Below are positions 6,010 through 53,923 of a stretch of 64,000 nucleotides of DNA, piece by piece (within the stretch, counting starts at the first letter, position 1; each line of letters opens with the position of its first letter). The notes beneath the pieces were generated by a model. It saw nothing but the letters and a program-made list of their open reading frames with translations, was not told where the DNA came from and did no database searches. A program made the position numbers and the translations under genes. Source of the stretch: Candidatus Aenigmatarchaeota archaeon (lineage in GTDB: Archaea; Aenigmatarchaeota; Aenigmatarchaeia; GW2011-AR5); contig JACPJW010000001.1 in the NCBI GenBank assembly GCA_016187335.1, forward strand, positions 671,159 to 735,158, given 5' to 3'.

Positions 6010-6492
6010 ATGGGGGTCGCAAAGCCAAAATCCAATGTAGTTCTAGGCGCAGTCGTAATAGCCGCTGTGTTTGTTGCAGGACTGATTTACGTTCAATTCA
6101 CAAAGCAGAATGAAGTAGCGGATAATTACCAAGTTGCACCACCCGAAGAAGTCGTTAGGCAATATTTTACGTCGTGGAACAATAGAGACTGGCCCAATAT
6201 GTACGCAACTTTGTCAGACGGATTCAAGAAAATTGATCCCAATGCTAAAGACTTAGCTGCATTCAGAAACTTTGCAAGCTCTCAAGGTATAGAAGGCGTT
6301 AACATAATAAGCATAAAAGAAGAGTCTAATGACGGAACTACAGCTAGCGTTGTATATTCTATTGAATTCACATTATCAAATGGAAGCAAGAGGCCGTTCA
6401 GCGATAGATTTACACTGAAATTCAGGCAAGGCGACATCATTCCCGGCTGGAAGCTTATTCACCCGTACGGCCCCAACATTGATACTTCGTAG
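6010..6492 (+). CDS. Membrane-anchored NTF2/SnoaL-like domain protein
   Basis: N-terminal TM helix; VVRQYFTSWNNRDWPNMYATLSDGF resembles the SnoaL/NTF2 fold signature. Confidence 0.4.
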   Translation: MGVAKPKSNVVLGAVVIAAVFVAGLIYVQFTKQNEVADNYQVAPPEEVVRQYFTSWNNRDWPNMYATLSDGFKKIDPNAKDLAAFRNFASSQGIEGVNIISIKEESNDGTTASVVYSIEFTLSNGSKRPFSDRFTLKFRQGDIIPGWKLIHPYGPNIDTS

Positions 6493-7333: not shown

Positions 7334-7792
7334 ATGAAAAGGAAAAATAGTAGCAAGGCGCATAAAGAAAAATTTCTCAGCATGTTTAGTGGGCTTTCAG
7401 GTAGCTTGAGCTTTCTGGGCGGATGGCAGGTTTGCCATAATTTATGCCTAGGTATTATAGCTCTGCTGTCAGTGGTGGGCATAGCAGTAGTTGGCATGCC
7501 GTTTTTGTTTTTAACGCAGTACGCTGTATATTTCTGGTCGCTAGCTGCATTGCTTCTTGTACCTACGCTTATATTGTACTGGAAAAACAGAAAATGCATC
7601 TCCGCGAATCTGATACTGTTTAACATAGGCATTGTAATCGCAAGCGTGCCTTTTGCGCAGCTGCAGGCTTATCAAGTAGCATTCTGGCTAGTTGGCGGCG
7701 TTTTAATTGCATCTTCTGTGTGGATGTTTGTAAAGCCGAAGTTTCAAAAGAACAATAAAAATTTAGCTTCTGGTGCTATTTCAGCGCCTTGA
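7334..7792 (+). CDS. Small integral membrane protein with a CxxxC motif
   Basis: About 4 TM helices; GGWQVCHNLCLG at the first helix; 6 nt downstream of the preceding gene. Confidence 0.4.
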   Translation: MKRKNSSKAHKEKFLSMFSGLSGSLSFLGGWQVCHNLCLGIIALLSVVGIAVVGMPFLFLTQYAVYFWSLAALLLVPTLILYWKNRKCISANLILFNIGIVIASVPFAQLQAYQVAFWLVGGVLIASSVWMFVKPKFQKNNKNLASGAISAP

Positions 7793-20042: not shown

Positions 20043-20227
20043 TTTAACACCTCAAAGTCGAACAGATTTTCAAAGCCGGAAAATCTGAAAGGGAAGAATT
20101 AAGACGGAGCAGAAAACTTCTAATTCCGGTTACTTTCCGCTTTAACTTATCCCAGTTTTTCCAGCCGGGTTTATCAACGAAAATAATTGATAGGAAAATT
20201 TAAAAAGACAAGTAATTGAATTGTTGT

Positions 20228-20893
20228 ATGAAAACCCCGGATTATGTCGGCAAAGACAGGGAAGAATTTTTGAAACGAATGCTTGGAACAGGGCCTTATT
20301 CAATAAATTTTTTAGTCTATGAGATAATTGTTCTCCCGCAGGTTTTTCTTCCAAGCACGCCTTCTGAATTGATGGCAAAATTTATACAAGTCAAGAAAGG
20401 AGACAGAATAATTGATGTAGGAACCGGTACAGGTATTTTAGCTTTGATTGCCGGGCTGCAAGGCGGAGCGGGTTATGCTACTGACATAAATCCCGATGCC
20501 GTAAAGAATGCCGGCATGAATCTGGATAAATACGGCATTTCTGGCATCCAGACCGCTGAAAGCGACTTGTTTTCAAATGTCCCAAAAGAAACGTTTGACT
20601 TGATAATTTTTAACAGACCGTTTTGGGACAGTTATGATGACAAAAGAATGCAGCATACAGTCGAATTGGGATTTTCAGATCCTACAGGAAAAGTGTTGCC
20701 TGAATTTTTGGACCAGTCAAAAGAACGCCTTAACACAAACGGGAAAATACTTGTCAGCGCAGCCGAGTGGGAAGATTTGCCGCAGGTAGAAAAAATGTTT
20801 CAAGAATTTGGTTATGCGTATACGATGCTTGGCAAGATGGCTAGTAAAAGAGACGAAAGAAGAGTTTACAGAGCTTATGAGTTGACTAGATAA
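20228..20893 (+). CDS. Class I SAM-dependent methyltransferase (HemK/Mtq2-like)
   Basis: Motif I DVGTGTGILAL; IIFNRPF sits in the position of the NPPY motif. Confidence 0.55.
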   Translation: MKTPDYVGKDREEFLKRMLGTGPYSINFLVYEIIVLPQVFLPSTPSELMAKFIQVKKGDRIIDVGTGTGILALIAGLQGGAGYATDINPDAVKNAGMNLDKYGISGIQTAESDLFSNVPKETFDLIIFNRPFWDSYDDKRMQHTVELGFSDPTGKVLPEFLDQSKERLNTNGKILVSAAEWEDLPQVEKMFQEFGYAYTMLGKMASKRDERRVYRAYELTR

Positions 20894-20904
20894 TTTGTTA
20901 TTTA

Positions 20905-20953
20905 ATATGTTCTTTTTCCGTAGACACTTTTTCTTGGAAGAAAAAGGGTCTAC
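20905..20953 (-). repeat. Intergenic copy of the tRNA-intron-like element
   Basis: Minus-strand TAGACCCTTTTTCTTCCAAGAAAAAGTGTCTACGGAAAAAGAACATAT aligns with intron segments at 46482-46532, 52198-52245 and 45635-45682. Confidence 0.6.
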
Positions 20954-21690
20954 ATTGACCCGCCTGAAACAACGAGCACCTGTCCCGTGACGTAGGAGTT
21001 GTCGTCTGAAGCAAAGAACAGGGCGGCCTTTGCGATGTCTTCTGGTTTTGCCAGTCTTTTGAGAGGAATATTTTCAGTGTATTTTTTTATGAGATCGGGC
21101 GATGCTGACCCCATCATGTCGGTGTCAACAGGTCCCGGAGCTATGGCGTTCACCGTGATGTTGTGCTCGGCAAGCTCGCGGCTCCAGATGCGCGTAAGCG
21201 CCGCTACGCCAGCCTTGCTGGCGGCGTATACGGCTGATGATGAACGGGTTGAGAAAGCCGCAACAGAGGAAATGTTTACAATCCTGCCGTATTTCCGCTT
21301 CATCATGTGGGGGACAACGGCCTTTGCGCAGTAAAAAACGCCCCTCAGATTTGTGTTTATCGTCTCGTCCCATGTTTTGTCGTCTGTGTTGAGCAAAGAG
21401 CCGCGCACAAGCACGCCGGCGTTGTTCACAAGAATGTCTATTCTTCCTAACTTTTCAATTACCGCAGCAATCGTCCTGCTTACTTCTTTCTTGCTTTTGA
21501 CGTCGCATTTTATTGCAATGCACTTCCTGCCCGACTTTTCTATTTCCCTTTTCACTTTTTCAGCAAGCTCTCTGTTCTTGTTGTAAGTTATCGCGACGTC
21601 AGAGCCTTCCTTCGCGAATTCCACGGCAATGGCTGCTCCGATGCCGCGGCTACCGCCTGTTACCAGCGCGACCCTGTTTTTCAGGCGCAT
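20950..21690 (-). CDS. Short-chain dehydrogenase/reductase (FabG-like)
   Basis: TGGSRGIG, NNAG, YAASKAG motifs. Start placed at Met31 (MRLKNRVALVTGG). Confidence 0.8.
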   Translation of the reverse strand: MRLKNRVALVTGGSRGIGAAIAVEFAKEGSDVAITYNKNRELAEKVKREIEKSGRKCIAIKCDVKSKKEVSRTIAAVIEKLGRIDILVNNAGVLVRGSLLNTDDKTWDETINTNLRGVFYCAKAVVPHMMKRKYGRIVNISSVAAFSTRSSSAVYAASKAGVAALTRIWSRELAEHNITVNAIAPGPVDTDMMGSASPDLIKKYTENIPLKRLAKPEDIAKAALFFASDDNSYVTGQVLVVSGGSM

Positions 21691-35756: not shown

Positions 35757-36014
35757 TTAGCTGAAAGCCGCGACGGAAACGGGAAACGGCTTCCCCAGTT
35801 TCGTGCCCAGGTCCTTGCTGTCGCCTTCAAAAATTTCAACAATAACCTTGCCCGAATCGTTCACCTTGTCAACAAGCGTTTTTGGGCAGTTTGAAGCGGC
35901 TATTACCTTTTTCGCCTTTCCCGCTTTTATACTTTTCACTACCTCGCGTATGCCTATGACGGCTTTGCCCGGAGGCAGCTTTGATGTTGTCGGAATATTT
36001 TGCATGGTCATCAT
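35757..36014 (-). CDS. rpl30e: 50S ribosomal protein L30e
   Basis: L7Ae/L30e-like KAVIGIREVVKSIKAGKAKKVIAASNCP; conserved position after rpoA2. Confidence 0.75.
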   Translation of the reverse strand: MMTMQNIPTTSKLPPGKAVIGIREVVKSIKAGKAKKVIAASNCPKTLVDKVNDSGKVIVEIFEGDSKDLGTKLGKPFPVSVAAFS

Positions 36015-36075
36015 CTTTATTGAATGCTTAATATTTTTCTTTCCGCAGGCGCTTTCTTTTCCAAAAAGAAAGGGC

Positions 36076-38553
36076 CTATTTTTTCTTCTTCATCTTTGAC
36101 AAATCCATCGTGAGCTCGACCATGCCCGTGCCGATGGGTGCCAGCTGCCCTACCAGCACGTTCTCGATTATCCCGTCCATGGTGTCCTTCTCGCCGTAGA
36201 ACGACGCGTTTATCAGGTGCCTTTTTGTTTCCTCAAAGTTCGCCCGCGCCAGGACGGACGCCTTTTTGCCGGATACGCCGTATCGCCCGATGTCCCTGAC
36301 CTCCCCGGTGAATGTCATGATGTCAGCAAGAAGCATCAGATGCCTTACATCAACCTCAAGGCCCTGCTCGTCTAAGGTTTCCTTGGCTTCCTGCAAAATA
36401 ACATTTCTCGTGGCTTCTATGCCGAGTATCTCGAAAATCTGGTGCACGTCGTTCGTCCTTGTCCTTTTTGCGTCAACTTCGTTTATCTGCAGGACCTTTT
36501 TCAGGTTAGTCCCTGCGGTCTGTATGACCCAGTCGTCGCCCTCGCGCACCACGACGACATTCTCTATCCCCTTGATGCCGTCAATGTGCATCTTCAGGAC
36601 CTTGTTTTTTATTTTTCTGAGGTTCTTGACGTCGCTTTCCTTCGGCTTTATGTAGACATTCCCGCCCCTGAAGGAAATGGCCGCCTCTTTGACGTATTTG
36701 GAGACCATTGATTTGAGCTGCTCTTTGTGCTTTTCGCCCTCAAGCTCCAGCTCAATCTGCATGTCAATAAGGTCTATGGAATCGGAAAGTATCACATCTT
36801 GCACTTTTACGGATTTCATCCTGTTCGCAATTTCCTTTGCCTTTTCCTTGCTGTTGTATTCTTCTTTCAGGTAAATGATCATGTTCTTCTCAAAAGTCTT
36901 GCGGGCGTCAAAAATCTCTATGAGCCTCGGCAGGCCCTGCGTGACCTTGCTCAGCCTGTCTGACTGCGAAGCCAGCGTATAGGAACGCATTGTGTTGTGT
37001 GTAATAATGCCTTCAAATGTCGTGAATGTTTCCGTGCCTTCAACCGTCAGATCGTAGACATATCCAGAAGAAGGCAAAACTTCTGTTATTTCAGTTATCT
37101 CATCCCAAACGACATCAGATGCATGCATCTTTCTGAGTATCGAAAGCTCTTCAGTCACATCAATGTGATTTTTCTTTGCAATCTCGTTGAATAATACAAT
37201 ATATCTAAGTAGGGCTTCTTTTCCAATTTTCTGCCTTTTTGTGAAGCTGTTTACATACCTGCTTGGATAACTCAGTTTCTTCGCAAGCTTTGGAAGCAGA
37301 TCGTCGAAGCCGCCTACAAGCTCGACAAAATCTTGCTTGATGGGTTTGCTAGCACACAGTACTCCAAGATTCTCGGCCTTTTTGGCGGAACTAAACCCGA
37401 TTTTTTGCCGGAATACAGATGCGTATTTTGCGGGTATTGTTAGTGTATATTGCTTGCCTCTTCCTTTGTAAGAGAATATGCCAAATCTCGCTAAGAGTAG
37501 TGAGATGCCGTCTATAAGCTCTTTTGAATTTGAAGAAGCCCTTATTACGCCTCTCTCGACAGATACATTCCCATCGCCGTCGAAATAAGCCTGCAAAAGC
37601 GCCGATACGAATTTCTCATCAGCACTGTACGCAAAATCAGGGACTCTCTTGTTCCTTGATCCACTACCGCATGTTTTTGCAAGTAGGGCGGAAAGAATAG
37701 CGGAATTTACATGAATATCATGGCCGTTTGCAAATCCTCTTGTGTTGTCATATTCATTATAGGTCAGGCCGAATGAAGAGGCAAATTGTCTTATTCTCCC
37801 GAGGAAAATTTCATTTGTGCTTGATATGCATACAAAATTCGGAGTGCAGTTTCCTTCGGAGAGATAAGCGCCGAAAATATATCCCGTAACCTCATTCAGC
37901 GGAAAGATTTCCGGCAAAGGCTTTTTGGCACGTGAAAAATGGGTTTCTGCAATCGATTTTAGGTTAATAGAATCTATGCAGTTTTCAGGAAGCAGCTTGA
38001 TTACCGGTATTCTCTCGCCTTTTCTCAGGTCTTTTCCGGAAACAGCAACTATCTTGTTATGCTTTCTTATAACAAATGAATGAGAATCTGTGGCTATTAT
38101 CTCGCGCCCTGACAGTGTTCTTATTCTCAGCAGCCTTTCCGGTGATTTGTGTCTGCTGCATGCAAGAACCTTTTTCCATTCGATTTTCTCCCCCTGATTT
38201 ATGCTGGGAACGTATATTTCCATGCCCGAAAGATCGCATATATCCCAGCCATTCTCGTTCATAGAACCCAGATTTTCTATTGATTCATCGGTAAAGCGGC
38301 TAATTTCAGAAATGGCAACCCGGTCTTTATGCTTGATAATTATTTTTTCCTTGGCGTCAATGCTCATCTGCGTCGCCGGTTCGCTGATTGATTGCGCTGC
38401 AACGACGCCTATTGCCTCGCCGGGTTCGTAAAGGTATTTCACGATAAGATGATTTAATTTTTCCAGCAGTTCTTCTTTTTTCTTCCCTTCAATCCCGTGC
38501 TTCCTGCAGTATTCCTCGAATTTCAGCAACACTTCCTTTGAAAGATAAGCCAT
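36076..38553 (-). CDS. rpoA2: DNA-directed RNA polymerase subunit A'' interrupted by an intein
   Basis: The exteins give AAQSISEPATQM | TMRSYTLAS... plus the conserved C-terminal A'' sequence. 825 aa compared with about 370-390 aa expected. Confidence 0.9.
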   Translation of the reverse strand: MAYLSKEVLLKFEEYCRKHGIEGKKKEELLEKLNHLIVKYLYEPGEAIGVVAAQSISEPATQMSIDAKEKIIIKHKDRVAISEISRFTDESIENLGSMNENGWDICDLSGMEIYVPSINQGEKIEWKKVLACSRHKSPERLLRIRTLSGREIIATDSHSFVIRKHNKIVAVSGKDLRKGERIPVIKLLPENCIDSINLKSIAETHFSRAKKPLPEIFPLNEVTGYIFGAYLSEGNCTPNFVCISSTNEIFLGRIRQFASSFGLTYNEYDNTRGFANGHDIHVNSAILSALLAKTCGSGSRNKRVPDFAYSADEKFVSALLQAYFDGDGNVSVERGVIRASSNSKELIDGISLLLARFGIFSYKGRGKQYTLTIPAKYASVFRQKIGFSSAKKAENLGVLCASKPIKQDFVELVGGFDDLLPKLAKKLSYPSRYVNSFTKRQKIGKEALLRYIVLFNEIAKKNHIDVTEELSILRKMHASDVVWDEITEITEVLPSSGYVYDLTVEGTETFTTFEGIITHNTMRSYTLASQSDRLSKVTQGLPRLIEIFDARKTFEKNMIIYLKEEYNSKEKAKEIANRMKSVKVQDVILSDSIDLIDMQIELELEGEKHKEQLKSMVSKYVKEAAISFRGGNVYIKPKESDVKNLRKIKNKVLKMHIDGIKGIENVVVVREGDDWVIQTAGTNLKKVLQINEVDAKRTRTNDVHQIFEILGIEATRNVILQEAKETLDEQGLEVDVRHLMLLADIMTFTGEVRDIGRYGVSGKKASVLARANFEETKRHLINASFYGEKDTMDGIIENVLVGQLAPIGTGMVELTMDLSKMKKKK
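36994..38364 (-). mobile_element. Intein (457 aa) with a LAGLIDADG homing-endonuclease domain inside RpoA''
   Basis: Ser1 (SIDAKEK), block B TDSH, LAGLIDADG motifs GYIFGAYLSEGN and LLQAYFDGDGNV, C-terminal VYDLTVE...GIITHN followed by Thr+1. Confidence 0.8.
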
Positions 38554-44718: not shown

Positions 44719-44979
44719 TCAAATGACAACCCTGTAGTAAAAATATTCTAATGCGACCGGGGATTTCCTGGTTATGCGCAGCACGTCGCCTTTTTTGGCG
44801 CCAAGCAGCTTCACTACCGGGTCTTCCTCGCGTATTTTCGGCAGCTGCCCCGAAGAAACATTCAGCCTTTCCAGCAGCTCCGCTTTCTCCTCGCCGCTCA
44901 TGATTTCGTGCTTAGGCACTAGGTCGCTCTGGAATATGTCTATCTTCTCTTCCTGCACTGCCTTTTCTTTTTCTGCCAC
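44719..44979 (-). CDS. rpoH: DNA-directed RNA polymerase subunit H
   Basis: LVPKHEIMSGEEKAELLERL...LPKI...DPV is the RpoH/Rpb5 C-terminal signature. GTG start with AGGTGA upstream. Confidence 0.85.
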   Translation of the reverse strand: MAEKEKAVQEEKIDIFQSDLVPKHEIMSGEEKAELLERLNVSSGQLPKIREEDPVVKLLGAKKGDVLRITRKSPVALEYFYYRVVI

Positions 44980-45158
44980 AAAATCACCTAAGAGGAGAAG
45001 AAACCTACGGTTTCCCTGCGGAGAACTTGAAAAGTTCTCCGAGGTCTCGAAAAGCTTTCGCTTTTCGCAGATCTCCCTCTACCCTCATTTCCCTTATTAT
45101 TTTTAAGACCTCTGAGAAGGTCTTCCGTTTTGGTGAAACTTTTCTGAAAAGTTTCTAG
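44980..45158 (-). promoter_or_regulatory. Structured hairpin-rich spacer between tRNA-Lys and rpoH (putative leader of the RNAP operon)
   Basis: Four perfect 7-9 bp hairpins at 45020-45040, 45048-45067, 45105-45124 and 45135-45155. Shares exact 10-12-mers (AGGAGAAGAAAC, CCTCATTTCC on the plus strand) with the tRNA-Lys anticodon-loop intron. Confidence 0.45.
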
Positions 45159-45500
45159 TGGGCCCGACGGGAAATTCGAAGCACGTTGCCACGACATGCT
45201 TATTCGAACCCGCGACAGGCGGCTATCTTTCAAGGAGAAGAAACGGAACAGCTTGAAGCACTTCGTGCTTCGGTTTCCTTCCTCTCCTTTGAACCTCATT
45301 TCCTCATATTACCGAACGAATTCGGCTTCGGATCTTTTATCTTTTTGATCAAACTTTTTTCCAAAAAGTTTGCATGATAAAAGGCCGCTACTCTACCAGG
45401 TTTCTCGCAACCCCAGTCTTCCTGTAATATCTTCGCATGTTCTTTGGGACATGCAAAGACCTTTCTTACAAGAAAGGGATTTGCACTGAGCTACAGGCCC
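45159..45500 (-). tRNA. tRNA-Lys(TTT) with three introns (342-nt gene)
   Basis: Exons 45500-45485, 45398-45378, 45224-45202 and 45171-45159 join to a 73-nt cloverleaf. Acceptor GGGCCTG/CGGGCCC, D stem GCTC/GAGT, anticodon stem GCGGC/GCCGC, loop CTTTTAA, T arm GCGGG-TTCGAAT-CCCGT, A73. Introns are about 86 nt (D loop), 153 nt (37/38) and 30 nt (T loop). Confidence 0.75.
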
Positions 45501-45501
45501 G

Positions 45502-45721
45502 CGCCTTGGCCGGGATATTCGGAACTTTCCCTTTTCCTCGAAGAACGTTAGTTCTTCGGGATCTTGGAGAACTTTCGTTCTCCACAGATGATTGAACTTT
45601 TTGGAAAAGTTCATTCGAACCCGGGTCGTAGCCGTTCTATGATTTTTCCGTTGACGCTTTTGCTCGCCAGCGGAAAAGGGTCATGACAGGGCTACATGCT
45701 AGACCGCTACACCACCAAGGC
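45502..45721 (-). tRNA. tRNA-Asp(GTC) with two introns
   Basis: Exons 45721-45684, 45634-45613 and 45514-45502 join to 73 nt. Acceptor GCCTTGG/CCAAGGC, TGGTGTAG D region, anticodon stem TAGCC/GGCTA, loop CTGTCAC, T arm CCGGG-TTCGAAT-CCCGG, G73. Introns are 49 nt (37/38) and 98 nt (T loop). Confidence 0.8.
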
Positions 45722-45722
45722 A

Positions 45723-45992
45723 TTATCTCCACATTAGGTAGCTTTTCATGTCATCCGTTGGTACAGTAACAACAAAATCACAAGGCTTGCCAGCTATTCG
45801 CATCACATCGCCCTGCGCATCATTAATCCTTCCCAGGGTTTTTTCGTCAAGCTCATCCACAATAGCGTATACAATCAAATGTCCGTCCGATTCCTGCACC
45901 GAAGCATGCATGACCGTGTAAACATCTTTTAAGGCATCCCTGAAGGTATCGAAAATCCTTTCTGTTGGAACGTCTTGGATATTCACAGGCAT
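45723..45992 (-). CDS. Hypothetical 89-aa protein
   Basis: AGGTGA lies 8 nt upstream of the ATG. The stop codon ends 1 nt before the tRNA-Asp 5' end. Confidence 0.4.
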   Translation of the reverse strand: MPVNIQDVPTERIFDTFRDALKDVYTVMHASVQESDGHLIVYAIVDELDEKTLGRINDAQGDVMRIAGKPCDFVVTVPTDDMKSYLMWR

Positions 45993-46328
45993 ATGAGTTC
46001 ACCTAAAGACTATCAGAAAGTCTCTCCTCTAAGTTTTGAAAACCGTTGTAGAGAAATAAGTCTTATAACCATTCAAACCCTGCCGCGCGCCATCAATGAC
46101 AAATATAAGGTCAGCAACGTCCTGGCGTTCACAGCTTTCGCCATTACTTGCCATATCGCTGGAGAGCTTAACTTCCAGGTTCGGAATGGATCTGGGTGTG
46201 CCCTCTCCGCCTTGGTCGCCAACCACATTACTATTCAAGGATAAAGGATTTAAAGACTTTAAAAACCGTCAGGACGAAACAGGATTTTTCTGGGTAAAAG
46301 CCGAAACCCGCCTTCCGTTTTTCTTCAA

Positions 46329-46338
46329 TTTTAAATAT
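46329..46338 (+). promoter_or_regulatory. TATA-box-like element upstream of tRNA-Tyr
   Basis: TTTTAAATAT lies 33-42 nt upstream of the mature 5' end, similar spacing to the element upstream of tRNA-Thr. Confidence 0.35.
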
Positions 46339-46370
46339 GTCCTTCGGCGTATTCTCTATTGCAATTTAAT

Positions 46371-46561
46371 CCCGCGATAGCTCAACGGTAGAGCGCCCGG
46401 CTGTAGCTTAGCACTGCAGAACAAAGCTGTGTTATGATTCAGCAGCCGCTCACTAGAAACCGGGAGGTTGCCGGTTCGAAAGACCCTTTTCTTTTGGAAA
46501 GAAAAGCGTCTACGGAAAAGAAAATATTAAGGAAAGGGGTCCGAAACTCCGGCTCGCGGGA
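46371..46561 (+). tRNA. tRNA-Tyr(GTA) with two introns
   Basis: Exons 46371-46406, 46459-46480 and 46548-46561. C1-G72 pair (archaeal Tyr identity), D stem GCTC/GAGC, anticodon stem CCCGG/CCGGG, loop CTGTAGA, T arm GCCGG-TTCGAAT-CCGGC, A73. Introns are 52 nt (37/38) and 67 nt (T loop). Followed by a T-run. Confidence 0.8.
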
Positions 46562-46564
46562 TTT

Positions 46565-47401
46565 TTAAATTTTTATGAGAAGTTTTTTTCTACTACCGAC
46601 TTCTACCCTTTCTCCGAACTTGTCCATGTTAGTTGCCAAAGTTATGCGCCTGTGCGGAAATGCGTGAGAAAAATAATCATATGCAGTTCTTATAGTTCTG
46701 CCCTCACAAACGTCCTCGTCAAAAATTAAGATTCTTCTTCCGTCCGTCTGTTCCTGCAAATAACCCAATTCATGCTTAAGAATCCGAGGTCGTCTATCCC
46801 GTAATTTATCCATAGATAGACGAACAACATAAAACGAACTGGCTGGAGCTCCAGCGTCACAGTAACGCAAAAATACATCCATTCCAGGAGCCGTGCCGCC
46901 GTGCGCCATTGTTATAAAAAGAACATCACGGTTCTTGAAATAATCCATCATTTTTTCTGCTGTCGCTCTGGATCTTTCAGGCTTCATAGCGCTCCAGGTA
47001 GTCGTATCTTCCTGCTGTTTAACTTTTCTTTCCAAAAGCTGCGGACATTGGGATTCAATTTTTGAGCGGAAATCGTGTAGATGTTGAACACTCTGGGAAT
47101 CTGATCCATAGACCGCCAATCCAAGATCGATTGCATTTCTAACGAGATCCACATTTCCTCTCAAAGGGTATGATATCTTGAAATCCAATACAGCTCTTAT
47201 AACCCTAGGGGCGTGAAGAGCAATTATAACCAGATCCTTGGTATCTGGACGACTGTAACTACAAAGAGCTTCGAGTTCGCCTAAGACTTCGCGCAAATTA
47301 CCGGAATACGATTGAAGATGTAGAAATTCTCTGAACGTTTGGGGCATTGTACCGGGCGGGCATTCGCCGGCAATTTTATCGAATAAGGAATGGTAGGGCA
47401 T
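46565..47401 (-). CDS. Hypothetical protein with a PRTase-like C-terminal half
   Basis: GRRILIFDEDVCEGRTI resembles the PRPP-binding loop of type I phosphoribosyltransferases. The N-terminal half is not recognised. Confidence 0.4.
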   Translation of the reverse strand: MPYHSLFDKIAGECPPGTMPQTFREFLHLQSYSGNLREVLGELEALCSYSRPDTKDLVIIALHAPRVIRAVLDFKISYPLRGNVDLVRNAIDLGLAVYGSDSQSVQHLHDFRSKIESQCPQLLERKVKQQEDTTTWSAMKPERSRATAEKMMDYFKNRDVLFITMAHGGTAPGMDVFLRYCDAGAPASSFYVVRLSMDKLRDRRPRILKHELGYLQEQTDGRRILIFDEDVCEGRTIRTAYDYFSHAFPHRRITLATNMDKFGERVEVGSRKKLLIKI

Positions 47402-52039: not shown

Positions 52040-52062
52040 GCAACTTTTTAGAAAAAAGTTGC
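52040..52062. repeat. Member of the hairpin family
   Basis: GCAACTTTTTAGAAAAAAGTTGC, with a degenerate copy ATCAGACTTTTCAGAAAA at 52070-52088. Confidence 0.5.
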
Positions 52063-52179: not shown

Positions 52180-52382
52180 GCCACGCTAGCTCAGTAAGCC
52201 CTTTTCTTGGAAAGAAAAGCGCTTGCGGAAAAAGAACATATTAGGAAAAGGGCTGGAGAATGGTAGAGCGTTAGTGAAATGACACCGCTAAACCTTGGTA
52301 AGGAACTTTTCAAAAAAGTTCCATCAAAACGGAAAAACCAACAAAGAGGTAAAGGCCCCGAGTTCGATCCTCGGGCGTGGCT
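52180..52382 (+). tRNA. tRNA-Thr(GGT) with three introns
   Basis: Exons 52180-52195, 52261-52273, 52293-52300 and 52347-52382 join to 73 nt. Acceptor GCCACGC/GCGTGGC, D stem GCTC/GAGC, anticodon stem TTACC/GGTAA (forms only after removing a 19-nt insert), loop TTGGTAA, T arm CCGAG-TTCGATC-CTCGG, U73. Introns are 65 nt (D loop), 19 nt (about 29/30) and 46 nt (37/38). Confidence 0.7.
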
Positions 52383-53880: not shown

Positions 53881-53923
53881 TTGATCAAACTTTCTTTTGA
53901 TCAAACTTTTCAGAAAAGTTTGA
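53881..53923. repeat. Tandem TTGATCAAACTTT units ending in a perfect hairpin of the family
   Basis: TTGATCAAACTTTCTTTTGATCAAACTTTTCAGAAAAGTTTGA. Confidence 0.55.

Follow-up and report, generated by a model that had tools for sequence, protein, structure and literature searches.

A structured element shared by tRNA introns and intergenic spacers in an aenigmatarchaeal genome and in other archaea

Why should a sequence of about 50 nt that directly follows the stop codon of a protein gene recur inside the introns of three tRNA genes? The question is raised by a 64-kb stretch of DNA from a Candidatus Aenigmatarchaeota archaeon (the window). A preliminary description of this stretch had noticed such a module in the T-loop intron of tRNA-Tyr, the D-loop intron of tRNA-Thr and the 37/38 intron of tRNA-Asp, and once outside any tRNA gene, behind a short-chain dehydrogenase/reductase (SDR) gene. 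It had proposed a mobile intron module able to stand alone. The observation is real and was under-called. Introns at three tRNA positions and non-tRNA sites do carry one and the same family, which folds into a hairpin closed by a covarying helix and occurs in many archaeal lineages. The proposal drawn from it is partly supported. Our leading reading, held tentatively, is that the module is a structured element, present in many copies and probably mobile, which spacers tolerate and which tRNA genes tolerate as a removable bulge-helix-bulge (BHB) intron.

Copies in the window and their tRNA hosts

The four sites were all found with the positions and strands first given, and they align over about 50 nt. 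Within the window, the pattern CCCTTTTN{6,20}AAAAGYGYNNRCGGAAAA matches these four sites and nothing else, and 100 dinucleotide-preserving shuffles gave no match at all. With a covariance model (R1), the four sites score 47.9–54.2 bits (E 3e-12 to 4e-14). Scanning with such a model, which the preliminary description had suggested, yielded a fifth copy in the window, between rpoA2 and rpl30e, so that the count of four had to be raised. The limits of the unit were shifted as well: the module is where it had been seen, but its true start lies 3 nt upstream of the CCC, and these 3 nt are base-paired. The Asp copy, which had been called more diverged, does differ in its apical hairpin, whereas its core is identical.

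Copy 1, the free-standing object of this study, consists of N3N2N1 = AGA (20951–20949), CCC, a U5-CUU / AAG-A5 hairpin, GUG, UCU, A and CGG, followed by an A5-GAAC tail and AUAUUA. Its minimum free energy (MFE) hairpin has −11.1 kcal/mol (z −3.3), and the same hairpin is the MFE structure in four of the five window copies. Copy 1 nearly fills the 56-nt spacer of two convergent genes. It stands right at the end of the SDR gene, as first noted, the TAG stop codon (20952–20950) overlapping the first two nt of the module (N3N2), and the stop codon of the convergent methyltransferase gene lies 9 nt past its extended 3' end (20903). An mRNA intron that removes the SDR stop codon was considered and rejected, as the spacer leaves no room for a second exon before the convergent gene.

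Copy 2, the additional one, is also free-standing and was matched by R1 at 36035–36078 (−) (27.5 bits, E 3.1e-6). It is flanked, in operon orientation, by the rpoA2 stop codon (TAG, 36078–36076), which it overlaps, and by the start of rpl30e, which is about 13 nt from its end, or about 20 nt without the AUAUUAAG extension. In its sequence, AGG-CCC-UUUC...GAAA-GCG-CCU-G-CGG-AAAG-AAAA-AUAUUAAG, the U-strand, the A-strand and the tail are altered together (UUUC / GAAA / AAAG). Four of the five window copies, two intronic and two intergenic, share a genome-specific 3' extension, GAA(A/C)AUAUUA(A)G (20903–20912, 36027–36036, 46521–46530 and 52234–52243), which is also carried by a metagenome copy (L135). 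Upstream of rpl30e, the extension may double as a TATA-like box. The intein of rpoA2 holds a LAGLIDADG homing-endonuclease domain (Pfam); an intein is also found in the related loci L250 and L253, and not in L251.

The tRNA assignments and the intron positions were confirmed. After removal of the introns by hand, ARAGORN returned clean cloverleaves for tRNA-Tyr(GUA), tRNA-Thr(GGU) and tRNA-Asp(GUC), and for the neighbouring tRNA-Lys(UUU). From the raw sequence it returned no correct tRNA in the window, and tRNA-Thr was miscalled as tRNA-Pro with a 131-nt "intron"; the Rfam scan gave a sub-threshold partial tRNA match only. At least four multi-intron tRNA genes lie within 8 kb. The Asp, Tyr and Thr copies interrupt a tRNA gene, as a BHB intron does, whereas copies 1 and 2 lie between protein genes.

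The splice junctions were read by hand. In tRNA-Asp, the module begins at intron nt 1 (UGA-CCC...) and has a CCGC-type apical hairpin. A BHB, CUGU/AUAG with bulges CA|U and AA|C, is made by the final 10 nt of the intron (..AUCAUAGAA), which pair with the anticodon loop. The tRNA-Tyr junction is a canonical hBHBh' motif, in which the 4-bp central helix UUCG/CGAA separates the 3-nt bulges AA|A and AC|U. Its inner helix (GACCCUUUUC/GGAAAGGGGUC) is formed by N2N1-CCCUUUUC of the module together with the 3'-terminal part of the intron (GGAAAGGGGUC-CGAA-AC), which gives the U-strand alternative partners. The D-loop junction of tRNA-Thr has only a relaxed BHB motif, and GGAAAAGGGCU (52244–52254) is able to pair back to N2N1-CCCUUUUCU. 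In the resolved tRNA cases, the module starts 0–1 nt from the 5' splice site (N3 is intron nt 1 or 2), and short canonical introns are made of the module plus 10–14 nt that can pair with the anticodon loop. The need for a BHB is considered to determine at which sites introns are permissible (PMC4090602).

Table 1. Module copies, host genes and flanking genes in the 64-kb window
Feature	Position	Strand	Evidence or remark
Methyltransferase gene (MTS domain), convergent to SDR	20216–20893	+	Domain match
Module copy 1, free-standing	20903–20951	−	47.9 bits, E 2.8e-12
SDR gene, 246-aa gene call	20950–21690	−	Pfam adh_short, E 3e-66
rpl30e, downstream of copy 2	35757–36014	−	
Module copy 2, free-standing	36027–36077	−	Covariance model R1
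rpoA2 (RNA polymerase subunit A''), with intein	36076–38553	−	TAG stop overlaps copy 2
tRNA-Asp(GUC) gene, two introns: module-bearing 37/38 and T-loop (about 100 nt)	45502–45721	−	
tRNA-Asp(GUC) 37/38 intron with module	45635–45683	−	51.0 bits; BHB read by hand
tRNA-Tyr(GUA) gene, two introns: 37/38 (46407–46458) and 59/60	46371–46561	+	Partial Rfam tRNA match
tRNA-Tyr(GUA) T-loop (59/60) intron	46481–46547	+	Module 46481–46530; 54.2 bits
tRNA-Thr(GGU) gene, three introns: 16/17, 29/30 (52274–52292) and 37/38 or 38/39 (52302–52347)	52180–52382	+	
tRNA-Thr(GGU) D-loop (16/17) intron	52196–52260	+	Module 52196–52243; 52.1 bits

The neighbouring tRNA-Lys(UUU) gene (about 45158–45506, −; about 350 nt) has insertions of about 84 nt in the D-loop, 170 nt at 37/38 and 30 nt in the T-loop, with approximate boundaries. 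None of the three carries the module. The tRNA-Asp and tRNA-Tyr genes are separated by a 5S rRNA gene (46109–46223, −; 62.5 bits).

Hairpin, mismatch and basal helix

Alignment of 122 distinct copies gave the consensus 5'-N3N2N1-CCC-UUUU-(variable hairpin)-AAAA-GCG-N1'N2'N3'-R-CGG-AAAA, an element of about 45–60 nt. From the base upwards, the stem consists of the N3N2N1:N' helix, a C-G pair, an invariant C·C mismatch (CCC opposite GCG), another C-G pair and a run of 4–6 U-A pairs; the tip above it varies freely and has a length of 6 nt to more than 60 nt. The covarying basal helix of 3 bp, the C·C mismatch and a mirror-repeat tail are features that were absent from the preliminary description.

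N3N2N1 pair with N1'N2'N3', the first three nt of YNNR, in 99.1% of the alignment cells, with pairs of all four Watson-Crick types. For N3:N3' these are CG (36 copies), AU (33), GC (29) and UA (20), with a single unpaired case among the 122. The search pattern had left N3, N2 and their partners unconstrained, and had limited only the partner of N1 to Y. The observed pairing was reached in none of 500 shuffles, and the paired proportion was 39–60% when the partner was slid by 1–3 columns. All three basal pairs are also present in 105 of the 107 copies of an independent metagenome set. In 119 of 122 copies, N1 is occupied by a purine, and the R after N3' is able to pair with N1' in 121 of 122. 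In the CCG-type subfamily, thermodynamic folding (ViennaRNA, secondary structure only) favours another pairing, of UUUUCCG with CGGAAAA.

The preliminary description had named a low-complexity, A/T/G-rich coincidence as the alternative to its reading. The composition is indeed simple, with runs of U and A. Not one of the 100 shuffles, however, produced even a single window match, more than 230 independent loci were found, nearly all archaeal, and the covariation is at positions that the search left unconstrained. Chance similarity is excluded by the shuffles, the cross-genome matches and the basal covariation, and the weight left to it is negligible.

Several other candidates were set aside. 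A closing helix CCCUUUU/AAAAGGG as a general part of the module was rejected, being found in just 14–20% of the copies, approximately. Compared by eye, K-turn, H/ACA and hammerhead-type or other small-ribozyme cores do not fit the consensus, nor do riboswitches, CRISPR repeats and attC sites.

Distribution, orientation and turnover

The same pattern was found in at least 118 loci of one-genome-per-species contigs, 115 of those listed being archaeal by record title, and a narrower subfamily pattern in at least 120 metagenome contigs. All these counts are lower bounds, and the composition of the sets may be biased by the order of scanning. The module is present in Aenigmatarchaeota, Micrarchaeota, Woesearchaeota/Nanoarchaeota, Iainarchaeota, Parvarchaeota and Nanohaloarchaea; further archaea that bear it are Altiarchaeota, ANME-1/Methanophagales, Syntrophoarchaeum, Methanocellales, Methanosarcinales, Thermoplasmata and Hadesarchaea. 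The core is thus common to at least ten named archaeal lineages, and the similarity is not confined to close relatives. Three bacterial matches among those listed (L081, L098 and L106) are without the basal helix, and their number is estimated to be about that expected by chance for a pattern of about 39 bits. Only two viral contigs have a match. When the window proteins were compared with the fetched loci, the best matches were with DPANN contigs, at 50–75% identity at best.

In the scan of the whole window with Rfam 15 at gathering thresholds, only the 5S rRNA was returned and no family for the module. A permissive Rfam scan of 44900–46650, which includes two module copies, gave no family on either, and a full-text search found no description of the module within the literature covered. 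Between archaeal phyla, from DPANN and Altiarchaeota to several euryarchaeal classes, about 25 nt of the core have stayed the same, so the core is under selection.

About 40–46% of the copies lie near or inside tRNA genes. The module can also stand free, as first proposed: of 121 genome copies, about half are without a T-arm motif nearby. The other function that had been suggested for it, as a 3' end structure or protein-binding site, may also apply. By the crude open reading frame (ORF) and T-arm heuristics, not gene calls, on which all orientation and context counts rest, a T-arm motif within about 200 nt is in sense with 87 and in antisense with 14 of 211 distinct copies (79 versus 6 in the exclusive cases). 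Among these 211, 23 directly follow TTCRA and thus belong to T-loops, and further copies are placed after anticodon loops, D-loops or positions of the variable arm. Brute-force intron deletion with ARAGORN (82,165 variants) resolved 38 of 134 copies, with noisy boundaries, which is a lower bound only.

Near the ends of long ORFs, 21 copies are sense and 18 antisense to the gene, without orientation bias. This count, anchored on stop codons, replaced that of a greedy ORF caller, which had produced spurious calls ("inside ORF", "divergent 50-nt spacer"). In 14 of the 21 sense cases, the stop codon lies −3 to +5 nt from N3. Copies are also found directly after tRNA 3' ends (L054, with N3N2N1 = CCA, L060, L072 and L093).

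The frequent location right after stop codons or between convergent genes could be that of a bidirectional transcription terminator or attenuator, with CCCUUUU(U) after the stop codon in sense and the U-tracts UUUUCCG...CGCUUUU in antisense. Archaeal termination uses U-tracts. The order of parts is not that of an intrinsic terminator, in which a U-run follows the hairpin; in the module, the U-run forms its 5' arm. A large fraction of the copies are near or in tRNA genes, the hand-resolved ones being introns, and inside a tRNA intron a terminator would be harmful; one window copy is inside the rpo operon. U-runs of at least 5 nt are present in 23% of the non-tRNA copies versus 12% of the tRNA-linked ones (p = 0.16). 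The covarying basal helix, the C·C mismatch and the mirror tail would be left unexplained, and we regard termination as very improbable.

A more serious rival is a host signal for RNA processing or stability, a kind of punctuation in which the hairpin and tail would define or protect RNA ends. An endonuclease could cut at the 5' edge, or exonucleases could be blocked, so that units of compact polycistronic transcripts are separated or stabilised; in introns, an autonomously folding body would keep multi-intron pre-tRNAs foldable. Such a role would fit the coincidence of the first paired nt with 5' splice sites, tRNA 3' ends, C/D-box-like ends and stop codons. It would also fit the cross-phylum conservation of the core, the strictly sense orientation near tRNAs, and the sense copies inside operons that fill the whole spacer (36027–36077 in the window, and others). 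It fits less well with intergenic antisense copies that are nearly as frequent as sense ones (18 versus 21), with the failure of relatives to keep the rpoA2-rpl30e copy, and with tandem arrays and genome-specific sibling copies, which look like proliferation. A 5-mer complementarity test found no enrichment of BHB-completing segments around non-tRNA copies, and little even around tRNA copies, so that it has low power. On balance, this role appears possible but unlikely. If it were true, the module would be a widespread unannotated feature of DPANN and ANME-1 transcriptomes.

A D-box-like CUGA immediately precedes the module in L006 (about 6095–6190), L112 and L025 (about 1690), and a C-box-like UGAUGA follows it by about 20 nt in L006 and L112. 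In these three loci, the module may lie between or inside C/D sRNA genes. The box C/D sRNA of the tRNA-Trp intron offers a parallel, being a structured RNA that is found in tRNA introns and elsewhere and is co-transcribed with host genes. In contrast, the module consensus is without C (RUGAUGA) or D (CUGA) boxes and has no recognisable guide.

Tandem copies were observed on three contigs: three units with a period of 71 in L004 (4889–5071, an Altarchaeum contig), four units with a period of 50 in the 37/38 intron of tRNA-Ser(GGA) in L095 (7646–7842), and two units with a period of 66 in L010 (2–115). Direct repeats of 25–27 nt flank the module in L070 (about 30–135) and L080 (about 2285–2385) only. 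In L058 (about 7505–7600), the module is preceded by a 12-nt copy of the tRNA 5' end (GGGGTCATAGTC) and followed by the full start of the tRNA. The flanking repeats of these last three loci may be traces of duplication or insertion.

The site between rpoA2 and rpl30e was compared with its orthologues. Relatives with 66–81% identical L30e have unrelated spacers of 64–112 nt at this place, without the module. In the closest relative (L250), the end of rpoA2 (...GAAGAAGAAAAAATAGG) is identical to that of the window up to the start of the CCC core of the module. At this orthologous site, then, the module is present in the window and absent from relatives, through either a gain or a loss. In the relatives, the next spacer, between rpl30e and nusA, is about 400 nt long (944–1341 in L251 and L252; 956–1372 in L253) versus 95 nt in the window. 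It starts with a CUUUUCCAAAAAGUUCGAUCAAAAG-type hairpin and may harbour another inserted element or an RNA gene.

Within one genome, non-orthologous tRNAs were found to carry near-identical introns, and at different positions. Elsewhere, too, each genome may have an apical hairpin of its own, repeated in several copies at different tRNA positions (L001, L063/L071 and L108/L110), as the window has its own variant in four of five copies. Spread within a genome, with gain or loss over time, fits the data because of the free-standing copies, the genome-specific variant and the absence of the rpoA2-rpl30e copy from relatives. 

In Thermoproteales, clusters of similar introns at different tRNA positions of one genome have been read as gains by transposition, with an unknown mechanism (Fujishima et al. 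2010, as summarised in PMC4090602). That likeness holds. The clusters were described within one order, whereas the module crosses phyla, has a covarying structure and is about half outside tRNA genes. The module is thus no local cluster, restricted to one lineage, in the Thermoproteales style, since its core is kept across phyla.

Short interspersed repeats of bacteria offer another comparison. Repetitive extragenic palindromic (REP) sequences, bacterial interspersed mosaic elements (BIMEs) and repeats like miniature inverted-repeat transposable elements (MITEs) are also short, imperfect, multi-copy hairpins in spacers, after stop codons or between convergent genes, sometimes tandem and variable between strains. 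They differ in that no transposase of the type associated with REPs (RAYT), conserved flanking tetranucleotide or target duplication was found with the module, no protein search having been made. The module has no consistent flank, the nucleotide N4 being A in 54%, T in 19%, G in 17% and C in 10%. To our knowledge, REPs do not occur as spliceable introns inside tRNA genes.

The mobile-element reading, which we prefer although its probability is a little below one half, would run as follows. The element would multiply within genomes and turn over between lineages. It would survive where it is harmless, in short intergenic spacers, in either orientation and often against a stop codon. In tRNA genes it would survive in the sense orientation only, where the hairpin would start at the 5' splice site and provide the inner helix of the BHB, and where the tRNA splicing endonuclease and the RtcB ligase would remove the element as an intron. 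The conserved three-strand core would be under selection, presumably as a feature recognised in processing or propagation.

Several points weigh against this reading, besides the heuristic basis of the orientation counts. No empty site was seen in the population of the window, as sampled by Logan assemblies of SRR121134xx runs: the SDR copy is in five and the rpoA2 copy in four assemblies, i.e., in all those fetched. No link to a transposase, a target-site duplication, a reverse transcriptase or any other mark of insertion was found, no systematic or protein-association search having been made. The basal pairs differ among sibling copies (AGA/UCU, AAG/CUU, UGA/UCA and AGG/CCU), so simple copy-and-paste is insufficient without later compensation. 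A core conserved across phyla could equally mean a host function, and the fixed register with the 5' splice site, tRNA 3' ends and stop codons is a hint that the element is not neutral and has a role in processing. The selection on the core, the compensated basal pairs and the precise alignment with tRNA ends and stop codons are left unexplained by a mobile element, and because of them host processing or stability and DNA-level roles stay in contention.

The mirror-image tail and a possible triple helix

Far from being a spacer, the 3' purine tail mirrors the A-strand, with CG-YNNR-CG as the centre of symmetry. The four tail positions past the part fixed by the search pattern match the mirrored A-strand in 48–51%, versus 27–30% after the tails were shuffled between copies. 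In a metagenome query, two informative positions of the tail were left unconstrained. Of the 107 distinct copies obtained, 106 had the mirror sequence AAAAGAA and none the direct repeat AAGAAAA.

For comparison of the three strands, copies found with the covariance model, free of any constraint on the tail, were used. The coordinated variant UUUC/GAAA/AAAG is found in the window (36035), L072, L152 and L219, and UUC/GAA/AAG in L200. U5 or U6 is accompanied by A5 or A6 twice in L010, L030, L073, L203 and L182. CCC/GCG/CGG is replaced by CC/CG/CG in L030, L060, L136, L147, L168, L171 and L201. Mirror runs of 11–17 nt exist, e.g., UUUUCUUUCUU / AAGAAAGAAAA / AAAAGAAAGAA. This corresponds to 5–6 layers in the core and 7–17 in the CUUU-type subfamily, with CG-YNNR-CG as a second loop of 8 nt.

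The pyrimidine-purine-purine order of the sense strand is the layout of a class II intrastrand triplex, and such a fold may be adopted. The ITxF search criteria for intrastrand triplexes are stems of 6–15 nt and loops of 1–6 nt (PMC4666352). The complementary strand has the order U/U/A and would allow U·A-U and C+·G-C triples. Purine-motif triplexes form in DNA and are reported not to form in RNA (Holder et al. 2015, PMC4666352). In addition, the mirror register requires CG-YNNR-CG as the turn, and such a turn clashes sterically with the N:N' helix at the base. For these two reasons, either alternative conformers or a third-strand contact of another kind may have to be envisaged.

The U/U/A strand recalls the U·A-U elements (ENE) of MALAT1 and PAN, the complementary strand of the module being a U-tract, a U-tract and an A-tract. 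In the tRNA genes and the rpo operon, however, that strand is antisense, and the transcribed strand is the purine-motif one. We know of no natural all-RNA purine-motif helix of such length.

The mirror repeat could instead belong to the DNA. An intrastrand triplex or hairpin of single-stranded DNA, similar to BoxC/PIT, might act in replication, recombination or transcription, or be a repeat that is merely generated and tolerated. In this view, the sense strand has the purine-motif layout (Y-R-R) and the complementary strand that of the pyrimidine motif (Y-Y-R), which would give T·A-T and C+·G-C triples. The mirror repeat, exact over 5 to 17 nt, follows every U-strand variant, and the chemistry reported for DNA and RNA purine motifs points the same way (PMC4666352). 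According to the same paper, the BoxC/PIT/TM(ECO) repeats of Enterobacteria carry on a single strand a pyrimidine tract, the purine tract complementary to it and a mirrored version of the latter, and are multi-copy, intergenic and highly conserved, without strand bias, linked transposase or known function. The intergenic copies of the module are likewise without orientation bias. BoxC, as described there, is G/C-rich (CCCTCNCCC...GGGNGAGGG...GGGNGAGGG) and bacterial, whereas the module is A/U-rich and archaeal. Beyond BoxC, the module has the basal 3-bp covarying helix, the fixed C·C mismatch and the 8-nt CG-YNNR-CG linker. No link of BoxC to introns or tRNA genes was met in the passages of PMC4666352 consulted.

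A role in the DNA is at variance with the sense orientation near tRNAs (79 versus 6), since splicing demands that the element act as RNA in tRNA genes. Most copies have core mirror arms of only 5–6 nt, which is short for a stable DNA triplex, and the basal helix and the mirror-register turn could not both exist in one static triplex. A DNA-level role is considered improbable, less so than termination.

A bolder interpretation would make the module a previously undescribed structured RNA that is common to several phyla: a portable, triplex-type core of BHB introns, mobilised via the endonuclease and RtcB, or acting in trans as a linear or circular RNA. We know of no trans function of the module, and this interpretation is thought unlikely, on a par with the processing signal. 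It would, if true, define the first sequence-defined mobile family of protein-spliced introns, with a status like that of group I and II cores, and might provide the first natural long purine-motif RNA triple helix.

The mechanism of intron gain at odd tRNA positions was still unknown in a 2014 review (PMC4090602), and "intron transposition" had been inferred only from similarity within one order. What is new is an element that can be searched with a covariance model, in many phyla, inside and outside tRNA genes, with at least one orthologous presence/absence difference. As a multi-copy, probably mobile element, the module may help to explain the spread of archaeal tRNA introns, and intron gain becomes testable. 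It is a new target for tRNA gene finders, which miss such genes. It is also a candidate natural triplex-type fold, with the basal helix, the C·C mismatch and the mirror tail as experimental targets.

A second family of small hairpins, GGAACUUUUC(N)AAAAAGUUCC, was observed in the window, in the 37/38 intron of tRNA-Thr (52303–52321, +) and the T-loop intron of tRNA-Asp (45594–45612, −), with further sites at 45136–45154, about 45345–45368, about 52040–52062 and 53903–53921. Related RAACUUUU...AAAAGUUY palindromes have 9 matches in intergenic DNA versus 0.14 expected, and a second small repeat is thus common to introns and spacers here. The motif TTTGATCAAAC stands beside hairpin repeats in the window (about 45338–45348 and 53884–53905), in L040 (about 1350) and in L064. 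The last two are module loci of ANME-1 (Methanophagales), and the motif may hint at an affinity of the window or at a shared regulatory site.

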